Shown here in pieces: positions 2,707-22,258 of a stretch of DNA of 24,000 nucleotides; positions within the stretch are counted from its first letter, which is position 1, and the number at the start of each line of letters is the position of its first letter. A program made the translations under genes and the position numbers. The stretch is from Thalassolituus oleivorans MIL-1 (lineage in GTDB: Bacteria; Pseudomonadota; Gammaproteobacteria; Pseudomonadales; Oceanobacteraceae). The stretch lies in assembly GCF_000355675.1 (NCBI RefSeq), contig NC_020888.1, forward strand, positions 1,730,883-1,754,882, read 5' to 3'. The notes under the pieces were generated by a model that did no database searches, was not told where the DNA came from, and saw only the letters and a program-made list of their open reading frames with translations.

Positions 2707-3072
2707 ATGAACAAGTCTATCAAATCAGTAAGTGCAATTTTGGGTACCGCTTTTATCGCTGCTATCGCTCAAGCACCTGCGGCCAGTGCTGCTGAGAACC
2801 CATTTGCTTCTGCTGAATTGCAGTCTGGCTACAAACTTGCGGCTCATCATGAAGAAGGTAAGTGTGGCGCCAAGTCTGAAGCTGAAGGCAAGTGTGGTGC
2901 TAAGTCTGAAGGCGAAGGCAAGTGCGGCGAAGGCAAATGTGGCGCGGAAAAGAAAGCTGCACACGAAGGCAAGTGCGGCGCCAAGTCTGAAGGCGAAGGC
3001 AAATGTGGCGCAGAAAAGAAAGCTGCCCATGAAGGTAAGTGTGGCGAAGGTAAGTGCGGCGCTAAGCAGTAA
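2707..3072 (+). CDS. hvfA: Secreted EGKCG-repeat RiPP precursor / metallophore protein (HvfA-like)
   Basis: AAGGAA Shine-Dalgarno about 7 nt upstream of the ATG. Sec signal peptide MNKSIKSVSAILGTAFIAAIAQAPAASA|AE. The mature part contains eight exact EGKCG motifs that hold all 8 Cys of the protein. The stop lies 2 nt before a DUF692 gene. Assignment rests on motif recognition plus gene context. Confidence 0.8.
   Translation: MNKSIKSVSAILGTAFIAAIAQAPAASAAENPFASAELQSGYKLAAHHEEGKCGAKSEAEGKCGAKSEGEGKCGEGKCGAEKKAAHEGKCGAKSEGEGKCGAEKKAAHEGKCGEGKCGAKQ
2854..3057 (+). repeat. In-frame tandem coding repeats: 8 x 15-nt EGKCG units with spacers AKSEA, AKSEG (x2), AEKKAAH (x2), or no spacer (x2)
   Basis: Read directly from the sequence. 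The units are gaa-ggY-aaR-tgY-ggY with differing synonymous codons. A larger block (AKSEGEGKCG..AEKKAAHEGKCG) is duplicated with a one-unit indel. Confidence 0.95.
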
Positions 3073-3074
3073 TT

Positions 3075-3947
3075 ATGGATAAGTCTGCGTTTAATCGTCA
3101 TGTTCAAGGTGCTGGGCTTGGGTTGAGAAGGGGGTTAATGGCTCCCTTGTCCGAGCATGAGCATTTGCCGGTTGATTTTATGGAGATTGCTCCAGAAAAT
3201 TGGATTGGGTTGGGTGGACGATTAGCGCATTCGTTAAGAAGTTATACCGAACGGTATGACTTCTTATGCCATGGTTTGTCGCTTTCTATTGGTAGTCCAG
3301 CGCCGTTAGACCTTAATTTTGTTCGTCAGGTAAAACGCTTTTTAGATGAGCATGGTGTTTTGGCTTACAGCGAGCATCTGAGTTACTGCGGTGATGAGGG
3401 GCATCTATACGATTTGCTTCCGATTCCATTTACTGATGACGCCGTAAACTATGTGGCTGATCGTATTAGTCAGGTGCAAGATATTCTTGGCCAGAGATTA
3501 ATTATCGAAAATGTGTCTGCTTATGCTGAGCCCGGTAAGGCGATGGAGGAAGCTGAGTTTGTGGCTGCTGTGCTTAATAAAGCGGACTGTGATTTGCTGT
3601 TGGATGTGAATAATGTTTACGTGAATAGTATTAATCATGGTTCTGATGCATTGGCATTTATCAAGGCGATGCCAACCGAGCGTATTCGATATTTACACGT
3701 TGCGGGGCATTTTGATGAAGCGCCGGATTTACTCATCGATACTCATGGCGATGCGGTAAAGGATATTGTCTGGGATCTATTAAAGCAGACGTATGAAATA
3801 CATGGCGTGTTACCGACCTTGCTTGAACGCGATTTTAACTTTCCTGCCGTTGAAGACTTATTTGCGGAGTTAGAGCAAATTCGCTCTCTGCAACACGATG
3901 TTGAGAATCAAGGGAAGTCTAGAACGAATGTCCTCCATACCGTTTAA
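3075..3947 (+). CDS. hvfB: Multinuclear non-heme iron oxidative enzyme (MNIO, DUF692 family; MbnB/HvfB/BufB-like)
   Basis: Typical DUF692 TIM-barrel motifs are present: GLGLRR, EIAPENW, HGLSLSIGS, SEHLSY, IENVSAY, LLDVNNVYVNS, HVAGH. The gene sits immediately downstream of the Cys-repeat precursor. Confidence 0.88.
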   Translation: MDKSAFNRHVQGAGLGLRRGLMAPLSEHEHLPVDFMEIAPENWIGLGGRLAHSLRSYTERYDFLCHGLSLSIGSPAPLDLNFVRQVKRFLDEHGVLAYSEHLSYCGDEGHLYDLLPIPFTDDAVNYVADRISQVQDILGQRLIIENVSAYAEPGKAMEEAEFVAAVLNKADCDLLLDVNNVYVNSINHGSDALAFIKAMPTERIRYLHVAGHFDEAPDLLIDTHGDAVKDIVWDLLKQTYEIHGVLPTLLERDFNFPAVEDLFAELEQIRSLQHDVENQGKSRTNVLHTV

Positions 3948-4707
3948 AAGTATTCAGTATCAATTTACGCGGTATATTCGTAGCCGTGGTGAGCAGCCAG
4001 TTGAAACGGAAATAGTTGGCGATATTGAACCGCGTCGGCTGAAAATTTATCGCGATTTATTCTTTAACAATGTCTGTGGATTTCTCGACTCTACCTTTCC
4101 TGTATGCGCAGAAATTCTTGGCGAGCAACGCTGGCGTGAGCTGAGTGAAGAATTTTTCTTAAAGCATGAATGCCACACCCCGTATTTTTTAAAGATCAGT
4201 GAAGAATTCCTACTCTTCTTGGCGCAAGAATATTCGCCGAAAGCTGATGATATACCCTACTTAAAGGAATTGGCTCACTATGAGTGGCTGGAATTGGCCG
4301 TTGATGTGGCTGAGGTAGAGCAGCCTAGGGATTTTGATCCCAATGCCGATTTAAGCAGCCATGTTCCCGTATTAGCTGCGGCGACCGAGGGGGCGTTTTA
4401 TCAATACCCTGTGCACAATGCCTCTGCCGCTAATTCCGCGTTACTGCCACAAGCCACTGCACTGATTGTTTATCGAGACCGACATGATACTGTCCGGTTT
4501 TTACATACGAATCCGTTTACTCTAGGCTTGTTAGTTATACTTCAAGACGAAGAACTAACCGGTCAAGATGCGGTTATTGCCCTGTTGAATCAGGCTGGTA
4601 TGGGATTGTCCGATACGGCTTTGCAGGGCGGTTTACAAATATTAGAACAGTGGCAGGAACAGGGTTTACTATTAGGTGCCAGAATAGATTCAAATAGTGA
4701 CGCTTAA
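3928..4707 (+). CDS. hvfC: DUF2063-family MNIO partner protein (MbnC/HvfC/BufC-like)
   Basis: The N-terminal pattern FQYQFTRYIR...YRDLFFNNV...FP is characteristic of DUF2063 DNA-binding-like partner proteins. It overlaps the end of the DUF692 gene, suggesting translational coupling. The start is ambiguous: ATG at 3898 (50-nt overlap) or ATG at 3928 (20-nt overlap). I chose 3928. Confidence 0.75.
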   Translation: MSSIPFKSIQYQFTRYIRSRGEQPVETEIVGDIEPRRLKIYRDLFFNNVCGFLDSTFPVCAEILGEQRWRELSEEFFLKHECHTPYFLKISEEFLLFLAQEYSPKADDIPYLKELAHYEWLELAVDVAEVEQPRDFDPNADLSSHVPVLAAATEGAFYQYPVHNASAANSALLPQATALIVYRDRHDTVRFLHTNPFTLGLLVILQDEELTGQDAVIALLNQAGMGLSDTALQGGLQILEQWQEQGLLLGARIDSNSDA

Positions 4708-5567: not shown

Positions 5568-6884
5568 TTATGGCTTGCCGCGAGTTGGCAATACATCTTT
5601 CAATTTAGCGCGCATAGTGCGAATAGCTTCTTCAGTTTCTTCCCAGCTAATACAGCCATCGGTTACTGATAGGCCGTATTCCAAATCACACAGATTGGCG
5701 GGGATATTCTGGCGACCGTGCTTGATGTTTGATTCAACCATTAAGCCAATAATAGATTTGTTGCCATCGAGTATTTGATTACTGACGTTGTCCATTACCA
5801 GTGGCTGCAATGCCGGATTCTTGTTTGAGTTTTCATGGCTGCAATCAACCATGATGTTTTTCATAAGATCCGATTTATCCAGCGCTTGCTCTGCTTGGGC
5901 AACATTCACTGAGTCATAGTTTGGTTTGCCGCCACCGCCGCGCAACACAACGTGACCGTATGGGTTGCCTTTAGTAGAGACAATCGACACGCTGCCAGCC
6001 TGATCAATACCCAGAAAACGATGAGGGTTAGCGACTGACATTAAGGCGTTGGTTGCCACTGTTAAGCTACCGTCAGTGCCGTTTTTGAATCCGACAGCCG
6101 ATGATAATCCAGAAGCCATTTCGCGATGAGTTTGCGATTCGGTAGTACGTGCGCCAATTGCTGACCAAGTAATTAAGTCTTGTAAGTACTGTGGCGAAAT
6201 AGGATCCAGCGCTTCAGTCGATAGAGGCAAGCCGAGTTCAGCTAAATCGATCAATAGCTTGCGCGAAATATGCAGGCCATCATGAATTTTGAACGTATCA
6301 TTCATGTATGGGTCGTTGATTAAACCTTTCCAGCCTACTGTCGTGCGTGGCTTTTCGAAGTAAACACGCATGATCAAGTATAAAGTGTCGCTTACTTCTT
6401 CTGCTAATTCACGCAGACGCATGGCGTAATCTTTTGCCGCTTCAACATCGTGAATTGAACAAGGCCCGATCACAACGAATATGCGGTGGTCTTTGCGATC
6501 AAGGATGTCACGGACGACTTGGCGGCCTTTGCATACACTCGCGATGGCAGCATCCGTAATAGGCATTTCTTTTTTTAGCTGATTTGGAGTAATCAGCGGG
6601 ACGATCGATTCAATATTGAGATCTTCTACGCGATTGTCGGTCATATCGGTTCCTGGCGCTTTTGGGCTGGTGAGGTCTGTATTTTGCTTCGCTGCGGTTG
6701 CTTGGTCCGCATTCGCACGTAATGTTCCGTTGGTTAATGCTTCAATCTGTTTCTGACGGCCAAGTGGAGGCTCATCCCCCCATTGGGATACGGCAGCGCT
6801 GGTTAGCTTCCAGCCGTCATCGGTACACGCTTTTGCGATGGCGCTTTTGGTTTTGAAGTATTGAACGACATCGTTTGTTTTCAT
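5568..6884 (-). CDS. Class I-alpha 3-deoxy-D-arabino-heptulosonate-7-phosphate (DAHP) synthase with an in-frame 80-aa N-terminal Cro/YdaS-like extension
   Basis: Residues 81-438 (MTDNRVEDLNIESIVPLITPNQL...) align end to end with AroF/G/H-type enzymes. Motifs seen: VVIGPCSIHD, KPRTTVGWKGLINDP, IGARTTESQTHRE. The longest ORF adds 80 codons without a stop. The internal ATG at 6642-6644 has its own AGGAA Shine-Dalgarno. The isozyme cannot be assigned. Confidence 0.9.
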   Translation of the reverse strand: MKTNDVVQYFKTKSAIAKACTDDGWKLTSAAVSQWGDEPPLGRQKQIEALTNGTLRANADQATAAKQNTDLTSPKAPGTDMTDNRVEDLNIESIVPLITPNQLKKEMPITDAAIASVCKGRQVVRDILDRKDHRIFVVIGPCSIHDVEAAKDYAMRLRELAEEVSDTLYLIMRVYFEKPRTTVGWKGLINDPYMNDTFKIHDGLHISRKLLIDLAELGLPLSTEALDPISPQYLQDLITWSAIGARTTESQTHREMASGLSSAVGFKNGTDGSLTVATNALMSVANPHRFLGIDQAGSVSIVSTKGNPYGHVVLRGGGGKPNYDSVNVAQAEQALDKSDLMKNIMVDCSHENSNKNPALQPLVMDNVSNQILDGNKSIIGLMVESNIKHGRQNIPANLCDLEYGLSVTDGCISWEETEEAIRTMRAKLKDVLPTRGKP

Positions 6885-12634: not shown

Positions 12635-13438
12635 ATGAAATTTCTTAAAAAAGCTTCACTAGCAGTATCAATCGCTGCAGTATCTTTCGCTGCTAACGCT
12701 GAGTTGGTTGCTATGGATGAAGCGACTATGTCTGCTGCGACTGGTCAAGCTGGTATCGATTTGAACATTACATTGGAAGGCGCTAACGCTATTTCTATTG
12801 GTGAAATCCTTTACACTGATACTGATGTGGCTGATGGCGGTAGCTTGTCTCTAAGCACTGTTACTGTTGGTACTGACTCTGGTACTCTGACTATTGAAAA
12901 CGTGATCGATATTACTTCAGACGGTATCATGAATATTGCTACTAGCGCTGTTTCTGGTCTTAAGATTGGTGTTGGTTCGGTTGATTTGGTTAATGCTGCT
13001 GGCGCTAACTCTGGTAATCTGATCTCAGGCTTGAGCTTGTCAATGGATTTGGGTGTGTCAAACACTACTATCGGTAAAGGTACTTATGATGCAGCTGGTG
13101 TTTTCACTGCTGACACTAAGACCGTGATCGATTCTCAGTCTTCTTTCAAGATTACTGCCGGTTCTTTGTCTGCACTTGACGGTCAAGTTGGCGTGAGCGG
13201 TATCACTTTTGATAACGACGGCCAGAACGTGGAAGTTGATACCACTATGTGGGCTGACGCAAGCGGCTTCAACATCAAAGTTAACAGCATTGCTGGTGAC
13301 TTGACCCTAGGTGCAGTTACTCTAGGCGGCACAACTGACGCTACTACCGGCGTATTTACTGCAGGCCCATCAATTGGTTCTGTTGGTATCAGCAACATCC
13401 AAATGGCTGGTGCAACTATCACTGTATCTGGTCACTAA
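12635..13438 (+). CDS. Abundant secreted beta-strand-rich acidic protein of unknown family (candidate structural subunit or cargo of the downstream operon)
   Basis: AGGAG Shine-Dalgarno with a 9-nt spacer. Sec signal MKFLKKASLAVSIAAVSFAANA|EL. The mature part is G/T/S/A/V/I/D/N-rich with no Arg, no Cys and one Pro, and shows about 12 alternating amphipathic strand patterns. Codons are strongly biased toward T-ending forms (ggt, gct, act, tct, gtt), unlike neighbouring genes. Two terminators follow the gene. Confidence 0.8.
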   Translation: MKFLKKASLAVSIAAVSFAANAELVAMDEATMSAATGQAGIDLNITLEGANAISIGEILYTDTDVADGGSLSLSTVTVGTDSGTLTIENVIDITSDGIMNIATSAVSGLKIGVGSVDLVNAAGANSGNLISGLSLSMDLGVSNTTIGKGTYDAAGVFTADTKTVIDSQSSFKITAGSLSALDGQVGVSGITFDNDGQNVEVDTTMWADASGFNIKVNSIAGDLTLGAVTLGGTTDATTGVFTAGPSIGSVGISNIQMAGATITVSGH

Positions 13439-13456
13439 GATCATTTGCTGGTGAAA

Positions 13457-13485
13457 TAAAAAAACCCGCTTAGGCGGGTTTTTTT
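13457..13485 (+). terminator. Rho-independent terminator T1 after the secreted-protein gene
   Basis: aaaaaaaCCCGCttagGCGGGttttttt: a GC stem extended by A/T pairs, followed by a T-run. Confidence 0.85.
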
Positions 13486-13501
13486 ATGCCTAAAATAAGA
13501 C

Positions 13502-13528
13502 AAAAAAGTGCGCCGATGGCGCATTTTT
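13502..13528 (+). terminator. Second tandem rho-independent terminator T2
   Basis: aaaaaaGTGCGCCgatGGCGCATtttt: a 6-bp perfect stem plus a G-U closing pair and a T-run, 17 nt after T1. Confidence 0.75.
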
Positions 13529-13617
13529 GGTTGGTAGATAGTGTGATTTTATGTAACATGTAAGATGACTAAACAAAATTATAATAACAATACGGAGGGG
13601 CCTTTGGCCTACGTGTA

Positions 13618-14550
13618 GTGTTTGTCATTCTTCTAGGATCACTAATTGGGTTTGCTATGGTGCACGAGCTGGCCATCGTGAACGATCGTCAGCCCGGCGA
13701 TACCATCGTTCGTGTTGCGGTAAACGAAGATTATCAGCAAGATCAGGTAGTCAACGTGGAGCCACTCTCCGTTAAGCGTTTTAAAAACGTGGTACGTCAA
13801 GTCTATGATTATTCTTGTGGCTCTGCTGCATTAACAACCTTGTTGGATTACTACTTGGGTAGAAACTTCCAAGAGCGCCAAGTGATGGAAGGTTTGCTGC
13901 GCTTCGGCGAAACCGAGCGCATCGTTCAGCGTCGCGGTTTCTCACTGCTCGATATGAAGCGTTTGGTAACTGCGCTAGGACATCCATCTGGCGGGTTTAA
14001 GGCTGAAGAGGAGGATCTAATAGCTTTAGATCATCCTGCGATTGCGCCGATCCACTATGCAGGTTTCAAGCATTTCATTGTGATTCGTTCTGTATATGAA
14101 GGGCGCGTTTATGTGGCTGATCCAGCGTTGGGGAATATAAGTTTTACGTTGCCGAGATTTCTCGAAATTTGGGACAATAACGTTCTTTTTATAGTGTTTC
14201 CGAACGGCCACAAACCCGCAACCGGTCTAGAGTTGCACGAAGAAGATATGCGTTTTGTTTCTGATTATATTATTGCGGAAAATACTTTCCGTGAATTTCC
14301 TGAATTCCAAATTCGTAGCGAGCATACGATTAGCAATCAGATTTACGCGATGAAAGACAATGCTCAGACGAGCTTTGGACCTAAGTTAGATGCTGACGGT
14401 AAGGCAGTAAGAAATGAGGACGGAAATATCGTCTACGAGGTTCTCGTAGAAACGAAGGCTGATGGTGCCGATCCGGATGACTTCAATACATATGTTGCCA
14501 CTGATCGCTCAGATGTAATTGAGAAGCACCTTCGCTTCCGCAGAAAATAA
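13618..14550 (+). CDS. Peptidase C39-like cysteine protease (standalone, non-ABC) with N-terminal hydrophobic anchor or signal and a ~110-aa C-terminal extension
   Basis: C39 catalytic signature: YDYSCGSAALTTLLDYY (Cys), GFKHFIVIRSVYEGRVYVADPALG (His and Asp), followed by FLEIWDNNVLFIV. The GTG start at 13618 is the first start after an in-frame stop. It gives the hydrophobic N-terminus FVILLGSLIGFAMV. The GGAGGGG upstream is about 19 nt away, so the start is uncertain; the alternative is ATG at 13657. Confidence 0.75.
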   Translation: MFVILLGSLIGFAMVHELAIVNDRQPGDTIVRVAVNEDYQQDQVVNVEPLSVKRFKNVVRQVYDYSCGSAALTTLLDYYLGRNFQERQVMEGLLRFGETERIVQRRGFSLLDMKRLVTALGHPSGGFKAEEEDLIALDHPAIAPIHYAGFKHFIVIRSVYEGRVYVADPALGNISFTLPRFLEIWDNNVLFIVFPNGHKPATGLELHEEDMRFVSDYIIAENTFREFPEFQIRSEHTISNQIYAMKDNAQTSFGPKLDADGKAVRNEDGNIVYEVLVETKADGADPDDFNTYVATDRSDVIEKHLRFRRK

Positions 14551-14576
14551 TAACGATAAAGAATTAAGGAATTTCC

Positions 14577-15644
14577 ATGTTGATTCGTACCAAACTAATT
14601 TCGATCCCCTTATTGTTGGCATTTGCCAGTGCAGTTGTTGCTGATGAAGCAGCCGATATGGATAAGGCACGTGAAGCCCTCACCAAGCAGGATAACGACG
14701 CTGATACTGAAAAGGCACTTGAGCAGGTTTTCGAGGCAGCAGAAAAGAATTATTCGATGTTGAAACGTGGCGGCGTTTCCGTTAACTACAACTTTGATTA
14801 TAGCTACTACGGCGATCAGCGGATTGATTTAACAATCACTCCTAACGTGAATAGTGATGGCCAAGTAACTGGCGACTCTACGATTAGCAGTGCAAATGTG
14901 AGTCCTGTGGCCAGCCATACCATGACGAACTCGTTTTCATTGGATTATGGATTGATGGATAACGTGACAATTGGTGGTCGTTTACCGCTGATTGCGAAGT
15001 TTGAGACAGAAGATGAGCTTACTGCCTACGGCGTAGGTGATCTTTCAGGTACGGTTCGTTGGCAGCCATTTGAATATGTTCCAGGCAAAATTAGTCAGAC
15101 CTACTTTGCAACGTTACGCTTGCCTACAGGCGATAGCCCCTATGAAATAGATGAAACGAAAAGCTTGCCGACTGGTTCCGGTACTTGGGGTTTGAGTGGC
15201 GGGGTGAGTGCTTCTAAGGTTCTTGATCCAGTGGTTCTATTCGGCTCGTTAAGTTATGGCTACACGCTGCCATTAACCGATCTAAATCAACGCCGAGGTA
15301 GTTCGATTCTTCGTGAAGTGCATTCTGGCAGTAGCTTATCCTTTTCTATGGGCTTTGCTTATTCGTTGTCGTACGACGTATCTTTGAGCGCTTCATTCCA
15401 AGGGTCGTTTAACGATCAATCGCGTTTTGAATTATATGATACTGCTACGGGTTCAACTGTTAGCTCAGTATCAGGCAGTCAAATGAGCGGTATTATGAAC
15501 TTTGCTCTTGGTGTGCGGGTGTCTCCAAAAACAATTGCTAACGTAAACGTTGGTTTTGGTATGACAGAGTTGTCCCCGGATATTTTGCTTGGTTTGTCTC
15601 TACCGATTGATGTCGAGGGTATTAAACCTTCTGCTGGTAACTAA
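14577..15644 (+). CDS. Outer-membrane beta-barrel protein with an N-terminal acidic helical segment (possibly the MetA-pathway 'transporter' barrel family)
   Basis: AAGGAA Shine-Dalgarno. Signal peptide MLIRTKLISIPLLLAFASAVVA|DE. About 40 aa of charged helical sequence follow (DMDKAREALTKQDNDADTEKALEQVFEAAEKNY). The rest shows alternating beta-strand patterns with G/S/Y-rich turns and a GVGDLSGTVRW motif. Family assignment is tentative. Confidence 0.6.
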   Translation: MLIRTKLISIPLLLAFASAVVADEAADMDKAREALTKQDNDADTEKALEQVFEAAEKNYSMLKRGGVSVNYNFDYSYYGDQRIDLTITPNVNSDGQVTGDSTISSANVSPVASHTMTNSFSLDYGLMDNVTIGGRLPLIAKFETEDELTAYGVGDLSGTVRWQPFEYVPGKISQTYFATLRLPTGDSPYEIDETKSLPTGSGTWGLSGGVSASKVLDPVVLFGSLSYGYTLPLTDLNQRRGSSILREVHSGSSLSFSMGFAYSLSYDVSLSASFQGSFNDQSRFELYDTATGSTVSSVSGSQMSGIMNFALGVRVSPKTIANVNVGFGMTELSPDILLGLSLPIDVEGIKPSAGN

Positions 15645-15650
15645 CCAGTC

Positions 15651-17336
15651 ATGGCTAATAAAACTATAAAAATGACAAGGTTATGGCGACACAATATGCG
15701 AATTTTACTGTTGGTGGCATTGTTAGTACCGAGTCTTGCAAAAGCAGAACTCGTACAGAACCTGTTTATTGATACCAAGGCAATGTCGTTGGGTAACGCA
15801 GTGACTGCTGATCCAACTGGTATCATGGATATTCACTTCAACCCCGCCGGTTTGACGAAGCTGGAAGGGCGTCAGGTTCAGGTTCAGTTACAGGGTGTTA
15901 TGTTGCGTTCTGAGGCTTCTTTTGCGCTGCCTAAAGGATATGACGATACCGAATCTGGGCTTTTGCCTATACATGAAGACCCAGTTTTGAATGAAGGCAA
16001 TAGCCATGCTGATGTGGCTATTTATATCCCCGGATATGGTTTGGTTGGCGTTCCTTTACCTGTGTTGGCGTTGCCTTCGGCCGGTATATCTATTAATCCA
16101 CCGGGCTCTAAATTCACATTTGCGAACGCTGTTTATGCGCCAATGGCTGCCGGCTTTTCAAAGGGTGATGATGATCCAGGGCGCTATCAGGCTAAAACGA
16201 TTGCACTTCAGCGCTTAACTTATTTGTCTCCATCATTTGGTTACAAGGTGACTGATGAGTTTTCTGTGGGCGCAGGTCTGCTGTTTTCGCATCAGGCGGT
16301 TGCACTTGAGCAAGATATTCGCGCACCTAACATTCTGGTCGGCGTGCTTGAGGAGCTTCAAGATGCGTTTGGGTGTTTTGATGCTGAGACGGGTGAGCCT
16401 ACCGGTAACGATCCGCTGGCGCCTTTATTGACGCTATGTGGCGGTAATGTTGGTCCATTTGATGATGTCGGTACTTTGAAGATTAACACTACTGAGAGTC
16501 TGTCACCCTCATTTAACCTTGGTTTGTTGTGGGAGCCGAATGGCTGGTTTAAGTTTGGCGTAGGCTATCAAAGTGAAGCAACGAGCCAATTGAAAGGCGA
16601 TTATGACTTGGAATATACCGATGAATTTGCGGATTTCTTCCGTAATTTTAGGTCGTCTATTATTGGTGCTATTGGTGGGGCGATATTCTCATTGCCTACG
16701 GGTAATAAGCGAGAGCGAGGTTTTGTTACTACCGAACTGACATATCCTCAGCATTTTCAGGCCGGTGTGGCATTCCAGTATTTTGATGTTTTCCATCTGA
16801 ATTTGGATTTAGGTTGGACCGACTACGATAAGTGGGATGAGCTGTATTTTGAGTTTGACCGCGATGTGAGCTTTTTATCGACAGCGAGAACCTTGTCTCC
16901 TGATTTGGTGACATCCTCTACTCTGACGATGCCGCTAAACTTTAAGAGTGTGTGGAATTATAAAGTGGGTGCATCTTGGGATCTTAACTCACGTATTCAG
17001 CTACGTGCAGGTTTGGAGCCTCGTAAGAGTTCTATTCCAGACGACTCTCGTAGTCTGCAGGCTCCTATTGGCTTTGCACGGTTGTACGGCGTTGGTTTAG
17101 GTTACCAGTGGGACTTGGATACTGTTGTAGACTTGTCTTTGAGCTTTATGAAGTCAGTTCAGCATATCCGTGCTGATCCACAAAATGCTGAGAATTTTGA
17201 TGACTATCCTAATTCAAGTAATTCACTTAACCGGAACTGTTTAACATGTGTTGTGACCAACCCGTATCCAGGTCTGGATATCGACACCAAGCTAACCATT
17301 GGCGCCGCTGGTATCAGTTTCCGCACCAAGTTCTAA
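15651..17336 (+). CDS. FadL/OMPP1/TodX-family outer-membrane transport protein, unusually long (561 aa)
   Basis: Signal peptide (MRILLLVALLVPSLAKA|E) followed by the family's N-terminal hatch motif AMSLGNAVTADPTGIMDIHFNPAGL. A C-terminal aromatic residue (..ISFRTKF) marks a beta-barrel OMP. The start could be 15651, 15672 or 15696; none has a good Shine-Dalgarno. Confidence 0.75.
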   Translation: MANKTIKMTRLWRHNMRILLLVALLVPSLAKAELVQNLFIDTKAMSLGNAVTADPTGIMDIHFNPAGLTKLEGRQVQVQLQGVMLRSEASFALPKGYDDTESGLLPIHEDPVLNEGNSHADVAIYIPGYGLVGVPLPVLALPSAGISINPPGSKFTFANAVYAPMAAGFSKGDDDPGRYQAKTIALQRLTYLSPSFGYKVTDEFSVGAGLLFSHQAVALEQDIRAPNILVGVLEELQDAFGCFDAETGEPTGNDPLAPLLTLCGGNVGPFDDVGTLKINTTESLSPSFNLGLLWEPNGWFKFGVGYQSEATSQLKGDYDLEYTDEFADFFRNFRSSIIGAIGGAIFSLPTGNKRERGFVTTELTYPQHFQAGVAFQYFDVFHLNLDLGWTDYDKWDELYFEFDRDVSFLSTARTLSPDLVTSSTLTMPLNFKSVWNYKVGASWDLNSRIQLRAGLEPRKSSIPDDSRSLQAPIGFARLYGVGLGYQWDLDTVVDLSLSFMKSVQHIRADPQNAENFDDYPNSSNSLNRNCLTCVVTNPYPGLDIDTKLTIGAAGISFRTKF

Positions 17337-18169
17337 TAGTATTAGCTATTATTTGCTCATCTTCGGCATATGCCGAAGATGAGTATTACACTTGGATTGA
17401 TGCAGAAGGTCGCATCCATAATAGTGTTGTTCCTAAAGATACCTCAGCTGACAAATCTAGCGCGAAGAAAGATATGCCTGCGCCGGTTGTAGGTGGAGAT
17501 ATTCCAAAGTTGCCCGGCGACGATACTCAGTATTTATCGGAAGACGAGCTCAAAATTCAGCAAAAACAAGATTTAGAAGATAAGCCACCTTTTTATATTT
17601 GGATTGATGAGGCTGGTATTGTTCATACGGAGATGCGTCCCGAAGGTCTGGAAGACGAAGAGGAGGCGGCCCAGAGCGTTACCGAGAGTCATGATCATAT
17701 ATTTGCCCCACCATTTCGTTTAGATGAAAAGGTACAGGATGGCGCCTGCTGCAATATGTATGAGCAAGCATTTATTGATGCCCTGACACCCTTTAAATCT
17801 CGCATGTATCCTGATCCTGATTTGCTTATGCCGTTTGCATTGAAGCAAGGAGATCGTCCTGCTTGGTATGTGCGAATAGGTAAGGCGGGAAAGAAAACTT
17901 CCGGTCAGCGTTTTGTGGTTTTGCGTGTTCGAGGTGAGCCGGTAGAGGCGTCAATTATTGCTTTAAATAGTGATTTGAAGCCCCTTTATTTTGACAATAA
18001 ATTGGGTCTGCATGAGTATCCAGAGAATTGGCACAGTGTTGCTTATCAGGAGACTCGTATTTTGCTTGAGGATGCTGATGTGGCGGCCATGATTATTTAC
18101 CTCGAGGGCGCCACAACAAAAACCATGTCTTTAGAAGTTAAGTGGGCCGATGGAACATCACCCGATTAA
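17246..18169 (+). CDS. Periplasmic protein with two DUF4124-like motifs and an uncharacterised C-terminal domain
   Basis: Predicted signal ..HWRRWYQFPHQVLIVLAIICSSSAYA|ED. Twin motifs YYTWIDAEGRIHNSVVP and FYIWIDEAGIVHTEMRP match the Y.W.D..G..H pattern of DUF4124. The only canonical start in frame is ATG 17246, giving a 91-nt overlap with the upstream gene. Confidence 0.6.
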   Translation: MCCDQPVSRSGYRHQANHWRRWYQFPHQVLIVLAIICSSSAYAEDEYYTWIDAEGRIHNSVVPKDTSADKSSAKKDMPAPVVGGDIPKLPGDDTQYLSEDELKIQQKQDLEDKPPFYIWIDEAGIVHTEMRPEGLEDEEEAAQSVTESHDHIFAPPFRLDEKVQDGACCNMYEQAFIDALTPFKSRMYPDPDLLMPFALKQGDRPAWYVRIGKAGKKTSGQRFVVLRVRGEPVEASIIALNSDLKPLYFDNKLGLHEYPENWHSVAYQETRILLEDADVAAMIIYLEGATTKTMSLEVKWADGTSPD

Positions 18170-19019
18170 TATCCGCACGGCGGTAGCGGATACTCATGCC
18201 GCGTTATTGCAGTACCCGCACGAATCGAAAAAACATCGGCGTCTAGTTCTATTGCATGGTGCTGGCGTTGCCGGTGAGCTTACCTGGACCTTTATCGCCA
18301 ATTACTTGAGTGAGTGGGACGAGGTCTTAATTCCTGATTTGCCCGGTATGGGTGCTAGTAAATTTATAGGGCATAAGCCTTGGCCCGTAGTCGCCGATTA
18401 CGTGGAAGCAATTCGAGAGTTGTTAGTTGCTCTGGATTGGGATTGTTTTGATATTGCCGGGTATAGTTTTGGCGGCTTGGTGACGGCTGACTTGCTGGGT
18501 GATTTTACTATTGGGCATTGTTTTTTAATCGAGCCGGCGATGCTCTTTTCGGGTGATGCTGTTGAGCTACGGCAGCGTGGCGAGGAGTATATTCGCGTCG
18601 CGGAGCATATTGCTGAAGCGCCGGATGACAGTGTTCCTTTTTTTGAATTTCTAGATTTGGTATCACCTCACCGTTTAAAGCGCGGTCGCGCGGACGAAAT
18701 TACAGTGCAGCGCTTGATGGGCGAGTCGCAGGGTTTTGCTCAGGCGTTGCATGCTGTTAGTGATGCTTTGTTGCGTGGTGCTGGTATTTTTACCCGTTGG
18801 ATGCCTAAGGTTTCTGGCGCAAGCTTTGTTGGTGAGTTGAGCTATGCCTCCATGCATGGTCGTCATCGTTTGTTAGCCGAAAATGCGAATGACTGGACGT
18901 ACTACGCAGTCCCCAATGCTGATCACAGCTTGGTGTTTATGAAGCCGCGCTGGATTGCACGGCATATGAATGAGAGAGCTAGCTCTGAAGGCGGCGTTGC
19001 AGACCAGCCAGCGCCATAA
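18150..19019 (+). CDS. Alpha/beta-fold hydrolase (last gene of the operon)
   Basis: Oxyanion-hole region [11 protein letters not shown], nucleophile elbow GYSFGG and C-terminal His (NADHSLVF). It overlaps the upstream gene by 20 nt, suggesting translational coupling. Confidence 0.75.
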
Positions 19020-19800
19020 TTCGCGTCGAAATTTCCTCAATGGATTTATCTGTAGTGCTAATTGATTGAATCTGTTCACGTTGATATAGCAGCTCCACCT
19101 CGTCCACTTCGTGATAACATTGCTTCAATGACGCATAGCGGCTGTTAGCTCGTCTTTCATTACGAATTGCAGATAGTCTATCGGGATCAATGGTTAAGCC
19201 AAATAACTTATGCTTGTGCATTTGTAAAAACGCCGGCAAAGATAAGTCTGCCATATCATCCTCTGTCAGAGGGTAATTGGCGGCTTTTATACCAAACTGC
19301 ATCGCCAAATAGAGGCAGGTTGGTGTTTTTCCTGATCGTGAGACCCCGATTAAAATGATGTCAGCTTCTTCATAATGCCGAGTCTTAGCACCATCATCGT
19401 TATCGAGCGCGAAGTTGACTGCGTCGATTCGACTGAGATAATTGGCCGAATCCGTCGGTGAGTGTGATTTGCCAACGGTATAGCACGAGTCGACGTTGAG
19501 TTCGCGCTCTAACGGAGCTAAAAACGCTGCAAATATGTCAACTTTGAATGCATCGGCAGTATCGATAATTGCGCGGATGTTTTTATCGACGATAGTGTCA
19601 AACACAATCGCAGATGACTCAGAGTCTATGGCAGCTTGATTTATTTTAGCCACGGCGGCCTCGGCCTTTTCAACTGAGTCGATGTAAGGCAGAGTGACGC
19701 GTTCAAATTGTATTTTATCAAACTGTGAAAGCAGGCTGTTGCCCAGAGTTTCAGCAGTGATGCCGGTACCGTCGGAAATAAAGTAGGCGTATCGCTTCAT
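18979..19800 (-). CDS. ppsR: Phosphoenolpyruvate synthase regulatory protein (PEP synthase kinase/pyrophosphorylase, DUF299)
   Basis: [27 protein letters not shown]... and the P-loop-like GVSRSGKTP match PpsR/YdiA. The gene is divergent from ppsA, the canonical arrangement. Confidence 0.9.
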
Positions 19801-19888: not shown

Positions 19889-22258
19889 TTGACCGATTAC
19901 GTACTTAGGTTCGATCAGGTTTCCATTGAAGATGTTGAACGAGTGGGTGGCAAGAATGCATCTCTCGGGGAAATGATCAGTAATCTCACCAACGCTGGAG
20001 TATCGGTTCCAAACGGATTCGCCACAACTGCGGACGCCTATCGAGAGTTTTTAAGCTACGAAGGTCTGGATGGTCGAATTGCGCAGGCGCTTGCGGGTTT
20101 GGATGTTAACGATATTCCAGCGTTGACGACGACAGGCGAGCAAATACGCCAATGGATTCACGAAGCGCCATTACCTCCAGCATTAGAGGCCGCGGTGCGC
20201 AAAGCGCTGATTGAGCTGCAAGAAGGTAATGAAACGGTGGCCTTAGCGGTTCGCTCTTCCGCCACAGCAGAGGATTTACCCGACGCCTCATTTGCTGGTC
20301 AGCAAGAAACACACTTGAATATTGTTGGTGTTGAGAACGTTCTCCACGCAATTCGAGATGTATTTGCTTCTCTATTCAATGATCGCGCGATTGCTTATCG
20401 CGAGCATCAGGGGTTCGATCATCATAAAGTCGCATTATCCGCAGGCATTCAACGCATGGTACGCAGTGAGACAGCATCCAGCGGTGTGATGTTTACCCTT
20501 GATACAGAATCCGGCTTCGACCAAGTTGTATTCGTCACTTCATCCTATGGCTTAGGTGAAACCGTCGTACAAGGGGCTGTTAACCCCGATGAATTCTATG
20601 TTCATAAAGCCAACCTTGATGCTGGTCGGCCAGCGATATTGCGACGCAATTTAGGTGGCAAAGCGATTAAAATGGTGTACAGCGCGGATGCGTCAGTCGG
20701 CAACTCAGTTGAGACTCAGCGTGTCGATCGAGAATTGCGCCAAGTTTTTTCGGTAACAGATGCCGAGGCTGAAACGCTCGCTAAGCAAGCGATGATTATC
20801 GAGCGTCATTATGGCCGTCCAATGGATATCGAATGGGCGAAAGACGGTGACGATGGTCAACTTTATATCGTCCAAGCTCGTCCAGAGACGGTTAAAAGTC
20901 GCGCCAGTAAAACCGTTATGGAGCGTTACTTGTTGAAAGAAACAGGTAACGTTTTGGCAGAAGGTCGCAGCATTGGTCATCGTATTGGTAAGGGGCGTGT
21001 TCGTGTAGTCCGTAACATTGACGACATGGATATGGTGCAGGACGGCGAAGTTCTGGTTGCTGATATGACGGACCCTGATTGGGAGCCTGTAATGAAGCGC
21101 TCAGCGGCTATTGTTACTAACCGTGGTGGACGTACTTGTCATGCAGCGATTATCGCGCGCGAACTTGGCATCCCGGCAGTGGTTGGTTGCGAAGATGCGA
21201 CTGAAAAGCTCAAAGATGGCGATGAAGTAACAGTATCTTGCGCAGAGGGTGATACGGGGTTTGTCTACGAAGGCGCATTGGATTTTGACGTGCGTACGAA
21301 TAGCGTTGAATCCATGCCAGATCTTGATCTGAAAATTATGATGAACGTTGGCAATCCTGACCGTGCCTTCGACTTCCAATCCTTGCCAAATGCTGGCGTT
21401 GGTTTGGCGCGTTTGGAGTTCATTATTAACCGCATGATCGGCGTGCATCCTAAAGCGCTGCTGAACTTCGACCAGTTGCCCGATGAATTGCGTCCAACCG
21501 TTGAACGACGCATATCGGGCTATGCTGGCCCAGTTGAGTTTTACGTTGAGAAGCTGGTCGAGGGTATTTCGACTCTTGCAGCTGCATTCTGGCCAAAGCG
21601 AGTGATTGTTCGCTTGTCAGACTTCAAGTCGAACGAATACGCTAACCTCATTGGCGGTCGGTTATACGAGCCAGAGGAAGAAAACCCAATGCTGGGCTTC
21701 CGTGGTGCGTCTCGTTACATATCTAAAAACTTCCGCGATTGTTTCGAGCTTGAGTGCCGAGCTATGCGTAAAGTCCGCGACGAAATGGGTTTTACCAATG
21801 TCGAGATTATGGTGCCGTTTGTTCGCACTGTTGGCGAGGCTGAGCAGGTAGTCGAGCTGCTGGCTGAAAACGGTTTACGCCGCGGCGAGAATGGTTTGCG
21901 GTTGATCATGATGTGCGAGCTACCAGCTAATGCGATTTTGGCTGACAAGTTCCTAGAGCACTTCGATGGATTTTCAGTTGGATCGAACGATTTAACCCAG
22001 CTGACATTGGGGCTAGATCGCGACTCCGGTATTATTGCGCACTTATTTGACGAGCGTAACGAGGCGATTTTGGCCTTGTTGGAAAATGCCATTAACGCTT
22101 GTAAAAAAGCGGGCAAGTACATAGGTATTTGCGGTCAGGGCCCATCGGATCATCCTGATTTTGCTAAGTGGTTAATGGATCACGGAATCGACAGTATCTC
22201 ATTGAACCCAGATTCAGTTTTGGATACGTGGTTTTTTCTTGCAGGTAAGCAGGGCTAA
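19889..22258 (+). CDS. ppsA: Phosphoenolpyruvate synthase (pyruvate, water dikinase)
   Basis: 789 aa. Motifs seen: [11 protein letters not shown], the phosphohistidine domain [24 protein letters not shown], and the PEP-utilising C-terminal domain (GSNDLTQ). TTG start at 19889 preceded by AGAGGAG. Confidence 0.95.

Follow-up and report, generated by a model that had tools for sequence, protein, structure and literature searches.

Three described systems come close to the gene cluster considered here, which occupies positions 12635–19019 of a 24,000-nucleotide stretch of DNA from Thalassolituus oleivorans MIL-1 (the window) and corresponds to the loci TOL_1622–TOL_1627 of this obligate marine hydrocarbon degrader. 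The first is the functional-amyloid system Fap, in which FapD is periplasmic and its catalytic Cys is needed for secretion. The second is the Fil system of Acinetobacter. In Acinetobacter sp. Tol 5, Edman degradation identified FilA as the protein that makes up the long, curved "Fil fimbriae", which are abundant and cover the cells grown on triacylglycerol. In Acinetobacter baumannii ATCC 19606, the fil operon encodes FilA of 289 amino acids (aa), then, after a gap of 287 nucleotides (nt), a C39 peptidase (279 aa), after 29 nt a barrel (398 aa), after 6 nt an outer-membrane transporter (556 aa), after 14 nt FilE (430 aa), and after 19 nt FilF (641 aa). The family is named and has curated hidden Markov models (HMMs); in the searchable literature we found no study of Fil pilus biogenesis, and a lead through the "thick pili" literature was dropped when it pointed to type IV pili. 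The third is 9XFV, "pilus-like-alpha", a helical filament from karst-cave water solved by cryo-electron microscopy (cryo-EM), with a rise of 11.70 Å and a twist of 283.86 degrees; it was assigned to a UniProt entry by reading the sequence from the density, and its authors gave no family or pathway (PMC12956863).

The comparison with these systems indicates, with a probability that we put at about 0.65, that the T. oleivorans cluster is a Fil-type pilus biogenesis operon, filABCDE followed by one lineage-specific gene. By homology, genes A to E appear to constitute a distant, previously unrecognised relative of the Acinetobacter operon and are collinear with it. The NCBIfam "putative pilus system" models matched the five proteins in order (FilA 53.5, FilB 265.9, FilC 309, FilD 490 and FilE 16.7 bits), over the full length for A to D; the FilA match (E 2.4e-14) aligned residues 2–267 of A to positions 1–279 of the 279 in the model. 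Pfam assigned A to DUF6160 (73.6 bits against a cut-off of 27), B to C39 (61.5 bits), D to Toluene_X/FadL (203.7 bits), E to DUF4124 and F to Abhydrolase_6. Thus, as in Acinetobacter, a DUF6160 subunit, a C39 peptidase, a FapF-like barrel, a FadL-like barrel and a DUF4124/MalM-like protein stand in equal order, and in both a long gap after filA is followed by gaps of 26–29 nt and 6 nt. The junctions in T. oleivorans are a 179-nt gap between A and B, a 26-nt gap between B and C, a 6-nt gap between C and D, a 91-nt overlap of D and E, and a 20-nt overlap of E and F. This comparison rests on HMMs and the published operon table, not on Acinetobacter sequences; among the close relatives listed in the search with the A-family profile there was no Acinetobacter FilA.

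The sequence-only reading of this stretch had given six open reading frames (ORFs) with coordinates and junction sizes, all of which were confirmed on the + strand, and its description of B as C39-like with three catalytic residues, of D as FadL-type, of E as a DUF4124 protein and of F as an alpha/beta hydrolase was borne out by Pfam. It had also regarded the ensemble as a candidate undescribed system that could not be placed and that had no recognisable fibre subunit. Neither statement can be kept, since A to E match FilA to FilE in the order and spacing of the A. baumannii operon, and A is a DUF6160 protein whose family profile matches the filament 9XFV. The six proteins are identical to entries in the supplementary table of a proteomic study of strain MIL-1 (PMC6304351), and because all six were detected there by mass spectrometry, the ORFs are real, expressed genes.

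Gene A (filA-like, TOL_1622; 12635..13438, + strand, 267 aa) is the putative filament subunit precursor of the DUF6160 family. Its predicted Sec signal peptide, residues 1–22 (MKFLKKASLAVSIAAVSFAANA; 12635..12700, + strand), was read in the sequence and is kept across homologues; the signal peptides of FilA-type proteins are conserved to an unusual degree across genera, with a mean column identity of 0.72, above that of the mature protein, to which sampling bias may contribute. The protein bears a net charge of −18, its AlphaFold model is all-beta from residue 41 (predicted local distance difference test, pLDDT, 84), and its codon bias is the strongest among the 19 window genes (effective number of codons, ENC, 40.6 vs 46–59), so that its earlier description as a Sec-dependent, acidic, beta-rich protein with a signature of high expression was well founded. 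Among the homologues, the N-terminal segment and the C-terminus, which ends in "...[GA]H", are conserved around a variable middle, and whole proteins range from 145 to 474 aa; the Pseudomonas A-type mature protein has only about 110 aa. The family is of modest size, with 723 clusters at 50% identity (E ≤ 1e-3).

The A-family profile, built from 67 homologues, found a single match in the PDB, 9xfv_A "bacteria pilus (like)", to which both conserved ends aligned (E 2.9e-7). Relatives of this filament were then sought in metagenomes with the fragments of the 9XFV chain aligned to the A-family profile. This gave 36 metagenome loci with close relatives of the 9XFV subunit, up to 98% identical on the first fragment, and the 9XFV-type subunit itself scored as DUF6160 at 71.9 bits. 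In 14 metagenome loci the order A-B-C-D is collinear, the 9XFV-type subunit gene lying 2–5 kilobases (kb) upstream of co-oriented C39, FapF-like and FadL-like genes; further paralogues with a leader often lie in the intervening stretch. The A-B-C-D gene set is therefore linked to a non-amyloid filament that has been physically observed. Members of the A family form a helical filament of this kind, and gene A, as far as its sequence tells, encodes a recognisable fibre subunit, a DUF6160/FilA protein.

These data also bear on whether the cluster might make a Fap-type functional amyloid, with A as a divergent amyloid subunit forming cross-beta fibres in the biofilm matrix. Such a reading would agree with B and C being the closest relatives of FapD and FapF, and with the all-beta, Gly/Ala/Thr/Ser/Val-rich character of A. 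However, A has few Gln/Asn, no Cys and no imperfect repeats, its internal repeats not exceeding those of shuffled controls (best self-match 34 vs 29 ± 3), so that the earlier statement that A is not FapC-like holds. Among the NCBIfam Fap models, only FapD (on B) and FapF (on C) matched any of the six proteins, and the conserved ends, variable middle and wide length range (125 to 450 residues) of the A relatives are typical of pilins, not of repeat amyloids. Since A lacks repeats and 9XFV rises 11.7 Å per folded subunit, as against the 4.8 Å of cross-beta, we regard an amyloid as improbable.

The second feature that unites the putative subunits is a segment of 15–16 residues directly after the predicted signal-peptidase site, found on every one of them. 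In A, this leader of double-glycine type comprises residues 23–38, E23–Q38 (ELVAMDEATMSAATGQ; 12701..12748, + strand). In the logo of 65 unique leaders, position −2 is always Gly (100%), position −1 is Gln and position −10 is Asp/Glu in 98% each, and 89% have Thr/Ser at −3. Positions −15, −12, −7 and −4 hold Met/Leu, Met/Leu/Ile, Leu/Met and Val/Thr/Ala/Ile, respectively; the leader is followed by Ala/Asp at +1 and by Gly at +2 in 85%. The pattern used for searching fixed positions −15, −12, −7, −4, −2 and −1 and left −10 and −3 unconstrained. It fired on 100 of 4313 co-oriented ORFs vs 2 of 4827 ORFs on the opposite strand. The leader is also better conserved (0.67) than the mature protein (0.33–0.49).

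In its hydrophobic spacing and its Gly at −2, the segment agrees with double-glycine leaders, and the colicin V (ColV) leader MRTLTLNELDSVSGG closely resembles MTAIDDSTLSTVSGQ, the leader in the closest relative of the 9XFV subunit. The precursor of this relative reads ...SASA, then MTAIDDSTLSTVSGQ, then DGVSIAGD..., and ends in ...QGSKFWMWAH. The deposited 9XFV chain has 173 residues, with V at position 3 and K at position 167, and therefore spans the precursor from the residue after G-Q to the C-terminal His. Because the leader has the double-glycine pattern and the 9XFV chain begins right after G-Q, we propose that FilB cuts at this point, after Q38 in A. The leader of the FilA-type subunits is thus the likely FilB substrate.

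Gene B (filB-like, TOL_1623; 13618..14550, + strand) would supply this activity. It encodes a standalone, FapD-like C39 cysteine peptidase of 310 aa with an N-terminal hydrophobic anchor or signal, and the long GTG start at 13618 is supported by the conservation of the hydrophobic N-terminus (other annotations give 297 aa for B, and 546 aa for D). The protein aligns to the C39 domains of PCAT-type proteins and matches the NCBIfam FapD model with 111 bits, below the cut-off of 330; Cys66, His152 and Asp168 are 97–100% conserved in 75 homologues. As further features of this family, every FilB homologue terminates in a short basic stretch, ...[FY][RK]R[KN] (14536–14550 in B), with the Arg 99% conserved, and in the Thalassolituus FilB proteins about 70 additional residues follow the C39 domain.

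Gene C (filC-like, TOL_1624; 14577..15644, + strand, 355 aa) encodes an outer-membrane barrel of FapF type with a periplasmic helical N-terminal segment. It scored 72.7 bits with the NCBIfam FapF model and matched FapF in the PDB with E 6e-16 over its C-terminal half. Its AlphaFold model (pLDDT 76) matched the FapF crystal structures in Foldseek with E 4e-19 and a target template modelling (TM) score of 0.76–0.84 over about 300 columns, ahead of the COG4313 channel and of autotransporter barrels; helices 4–36 and 42–59 precede the barrel and were modelled with low confidence. C thus has the FapF fold, and the suggestion that the cluster follows a Fap-like logic stands for both B and C. A Gly-Gly at the helix–barrel junction of C, considered as a second FilB site after a proposal made for FapF, was dropped because only G65 is invariant, while G66 is only 40% conserved.

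Gene D (filD-like, TOL_1625; 15651..17336, + strand, 561 aa) encodes an enlarged Toluene_X barrel of the FadL/TodX family, whose NPA hatch motif is 100% conserved in 77 homologues. A Pseudomonas FilD matches PorV_fam at 41.6 bits, below the cut-off. That a FadL-fold barrel can serve protein secretion has a precedent in PorV of the type IX system. The overlapping gene E (filE-like, TOL_1626; 17246..18169, + strand) encodes a periplasmic protein that has two DUF4124 motifs and, at its C-terminus, a MalM-like domain, of 307 aa vs the 430 aa of Acinetobacter FilE; its 91-nt overlap with D is likely since the ATG at 17246 is the sole canonical start upstream of the signal-peptide core of E. The profile of the Thalassolituus-clade E proteins aligned to the Pseudomonas/Hahella FilE-like clade with an hhalign probability of 99.85% (E 1.2e-30, 253 columns), and Hahella E matches both FilE (39 bits) and MalM (44 bits). 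E may hence be seen as a shortened FilE.

To follow expression, we used the published proteomics of strain MIL-1 grown on n-C14, n-C28 or Tween 80 (Gregson et al. 2018, PMC6304351), where the mean spectral counts on the three substrates, in this order, were 3.5, 14.9 and 0.8 for A (P 0.20); 0.28, 5.98 and 0 for B (P 0.0085); 7.2, 15.7 and 3.6 for C (P 6.5e-6); 0.26, 8.9 and 0 for D (P 2.7e-5); 1.07, 1.64 and 0.51 for E; and 0.26, 1.07 and 0 for F, the last two not significant. All six proteins peak on solid n-C28, the rise being significant for B, C and D, and the convergent neighbour ppsR is flat across substrates. High expression on a water-insoluble carbon source is a further trait in common with Acinetobacter, the source being triacylglycerol in Tol 5 and n-C28 in T. 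oleivorans. From the induction on these two substrates, we consider attachment to a solid or hydrophobic substrate to be the likely role in T. oleivorans, and the cluster probably builds a surface filament during growth on solid wax.

The published discussion of these data considered only D, TOL_1625, as a FadL homologue for passive n-C28 uptake (PMC6304351). Extended to the whole cluster, this would make it an uptake machine, an alternative that the sequence-only reading had also offered, in which D imports long-chain alkanes, A is an abundant secreted binder or emulsifier, F is an esterase, and B, C and E only export A. It accommodates the invariant hatch motif of a FadL/TodX-family barrel, the significant rise of B, C and D on n-C28, with D undetected on Tween 80, the abundance of the Acinetobacter Fil fimbriae on triacylglycerol, and the fact that many hosts degrade oil or lipids (Thalassolituus, Oleispira, Oleiphilaceae, Marinobacter). 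However, in 94 loci D is never separated from B and C, and among these loci are betaproteobacterial clusters from soil and freshwater with genes for close relatives of the 9XFV subunit; no alkane or fatty-acid catabolic genes were found near the cluster, and no alkane-catabolic genes flank it; A belongs to a filament-forming family; and F is cytoplasmic and absent outside one clade. We therefore hold uptake as the main function to be unlikely, while leaving it some weight, as D truly belongs to the FadL family of barrels and the n-C28 induction fits. The pilus and uptake readings are compatible, as an adhesion pilus could possibly be combined with a FilD that also admits substrate.

A scan with the C-family alignment, restricted to one genome per species, yielded 80 loci in more than 10 genera, including Thalassolituus, Bacterioplanes, Bacterioplanoides, Oleispira, Venatoribacter, Oleiphilaceae, Hahella, Allohahella, Marinobacter, Pseudomonas, Zestomonas and others. 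B-C-D-E is collinear in every one of these loci that is long enough to show the order, and in the genome and metagenome loci alike D follows C wherever the locus extends far enough. In the Oceanospirillaceae and Pseudomonas loci, A is the gene directly upstream of B. Some species bear two tandem FilA paralogues. In the betaproteobacterial clusters, as many as four ORFs with a leader stand between the gene of the major subunit and filB, and this suggests minor or tip subunits; in these clusters, a DUF2059 protein follows filD in place of FilE, and an AraC-type regulator is encoded nearby. In Hahella, Marinobacter, Oleiphilaceae and Allohahella, filB stands directly after ppiD. The earlier view of the cluster as one conserved unit thus held, except for F, which is confined to a single clade and is not part of the core.

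Given this distribution, mere adjacency, with A an independent secreted or outer-membrane protein and B to F unrelated envelope genes, is very unlikely. The presence of terminators between A and B would be in keeping with it: the 179-nt gap contains two tandem intrinsic-terminator hairpins (13456–13487 and 13504–13528, that is 13456..13528 on the + strand), each followed by a U-tract, as judged from RNA folding and sequence reading (minimum free energy −37.3 kcal/mol, z = −4.98, with 0 of 200 shuffles folding as well), just as the sequence-only reading had claimed. So would the filBCDE sets that have no adjacent A in some genera. On the other hand, A is placed directly upstream of B in Oceanospirillaceae and Pseudomonas, to which the betaproteobacterial loci are to be added, the leader-bearing ORFs all lie upstream of B and on its strand, the layout is shared with Acinetobacter, and the spectral counts of all six proteins peak together on n-C28.

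The sixth gene, F (TOL_1627; 18150..19019, + strand, 289 aa), encodes an alpha/beta hydrolase in which Ser106, HGAG and Asp-His are 100% conserved (32 homologues). No signal peptide was found in F, so that the protein is taken to be cytoplasmic. F is present only in the Thalassolituus/Oleispira/Bacterioplanes clade, where its linkage to the cluster is weak evidence because all neighbouring genes are syntenic as well; it is probably co-transcribed with the cluster. A role as a secreted esterase was rejected on account of the missing signal peptide and of the restriction to one clade, and identity with FilF was rejected too, as FilF is an outer-membrane lipoprotein. Downstream, F and the convergent ppsR (18979–19800, − strand) overlap tail to tail by 41 nt (18979–19019).

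Several observations weigh against the assignment to a Fil-type pilus operon or against parts of the scheme built on it. Every Fil score lies under the curated NCBIfam cut-off (53/220, 266/475, 309/630, 490/970 and 17/100). The direct match of E to the FilE model is weak (E 0.0028), so E is linked to FilE only via the chain of profile–profile comparisons. The FilF lipoprotein is absent, the sixth place being taken by the cytoplasmic hydrolase, and no FilF-like ORF was found after E in any of the 80 genome loci. When the monomer model of A was compared with the PDB by Foldseek, nothing meaningful matched (best E 0.17, TM below 0.2), and the link of A to 9XFV accordingly rests on the two aligned sequence stretches. 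The rise of A itself on n-C28 was not significant. In Hahella, Marinobacter, Oleiphilaceae and Allohahella, filBCDE has no leader-bearing subunit ORF within 10 kb; either the subunit is encoded elsewhere, or a different cargo is exported.

As for the cleavage, the start of the 9XFV model may reflect a leader that is retained but disordered, not processing. C39 enzymes normally want Gly, Ala or Ser at −1, where this leader has Gln, and no double-glycine-leader HMM fired on A. Finally, the surface filament of T. oleivorans is a prediction from its genes and proteins.

With these reservations, a course of events may be outlined for the Fil-type operon. FilA would cross the inner membrane by Sec, and signal peptidase would cut after residue 22, thereby exposing the 16-residue double-glycine-type leader. 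The periplasmic, membrane-tethered C39 peptidase FilB would bind this leader and cut after the invariant G37-Q38. Mature FilA (A39–H267) might then pass unfolded through the gated FapF-like channel FilC and polymerise outside the cell into a helical filament via its conserved N- and C-terminal segments. An assembly or anchoring platform could be formed by FilD, as a FadL-type barrel, together with the periplasmic FilE, on the model of PorV in type IX secretion; this is the most speculative step, and the roles given to both proteins are guesses. The terminators behind filA would ensure an excess of subunit over machinery.

An Rfam scan of the window gave no match, and a promoter scan was at chance level (12 sites vs 12.7 expected). 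Three other features of the window may be recorded. The ppsA gene (19889–22258) appears to begin with TTG. On the + strand, a 121-aa ORF at 2707–3072 with a Sec signal peptide and repeated EGKCG motifs lies directly upstream of genes for a DUF692/MbnB-TglH-ChrH enzyme (3075–3947) and a DUF2063 protein (3898–4707); this gene group (2707–4707) presumably resembles an operon for a copper-binding ribosomally synthesised and post-translationally modified peptide of bufferin type (BUF_EGKCG). On the − strand, 5568–6884 encodes a DAHP synthase with an N-terminal P22 Cro-like helix-turn-helix domain, an unusual fusion of DNA-binding and aromatic-biosynthesis parts.

The Fil family was already known, and the cluster itself is not categorically new. 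What is new is the placing of the T. oleivorans genes in this family, the linking of the orphan filament 9XFV to Fil-type clusters, and the leader hypothesis. Databases label the cluster genes "DUF6160 family protein", "transporter", sometimes "flagellar protein FilC", or FadL homologue. Recognition of a Fil operon recasts the n-C28 response of a key oil-spill bacterium as attachment to solid wax rather than, or besides, uptake. Fil pili occur in A. baumannii, where FilF is a vaccine candidate, and the links to FapD, to FapF and to a solved filament give a concrete model of their assembly. The substrate of the periplasmic C39 peptidases has been open since 2017, and the G-Q leader on every putative subunit is a testable candidate.

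More tentatively, and with less confidence than we place in the operon assignment, we suggest that Fil may be a distinct and widespread outer-membrane assembly pathway, sister of Fap, in which Sec-exported pilins lose a second leader to a periplasmic C39 peptidase after Gly-Gln, pass a FapF-like channel and form a folded, non-amyloid helical pilus on a FadL-fold platform. If true, the FapD/FilB class of periplasmic C39 peptidases would gain its first defined substrate, the cryo-EM filament 9XFV would obtain a biogenesis pathway, and the "alkane transporter" TOL_1625 would turn out to be a part of a pilus machinery for attachment to solid hydrocarbons.

Compared with the solved filament, the T. 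oleivorans cluster shares with 9XFV a DUF6160 subunit, a matching leader and the C-terminal end "...G.K/T.W/I.[GA]H". The 9XFV-type clusters differ in being betaproteobacterial and of high G+C and in having extra leader-bearing paralogues and the DUF2059 protein in place of FilE; the mature subunit has 173 aa in 9XFV vs 229 aa in A, with similarity detectable only in the two end segments. Like the PCAT/ABC exporters that act on double-glycine leaders such as that of colicin V, the cluster combines a C39 fold having the Cys-His-Asp residues with a leader that is hydrophobic at −15, −12, −7 and −4 and has Gly at −2. Unlike them, the peptidase B is standalone and periplasmic and is not a cytoplasmic domain of an ABC transporter, and the leader of A, for which cleavage is inferred, follows a Sec signal peptide and ends in Gln. 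D resembles the FadL/TodX/AlkL channels in its Toluene_X domain and NPA hatch motif; it is about 110–140 residues longer than FadL and, in contrast to FadL-type importers, is always embedded in a pilus cluster and not beside catabolic genes.

With Fap, the cluster has in common a Sec-dependent substrate, a periplasmic C39 peptidase, which in Fap is needed for secretion, and an outer-membrane barrel with a periplasmic helical N-terminus. It differs from Fap in that no homologues of FapA, FapB, FapC or FapE were found among the six proteins with the NCBIfam models, in that A is not a repeat amyloid and the related filament 9XFV is made of folded subunits, and in that the FadL-type barrel D and the FilE-like protein E are additional. 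In other words, Fil is a sister of Fap in its peptidase and channel, and differs from it in the subunit and in having FilD and FilE.

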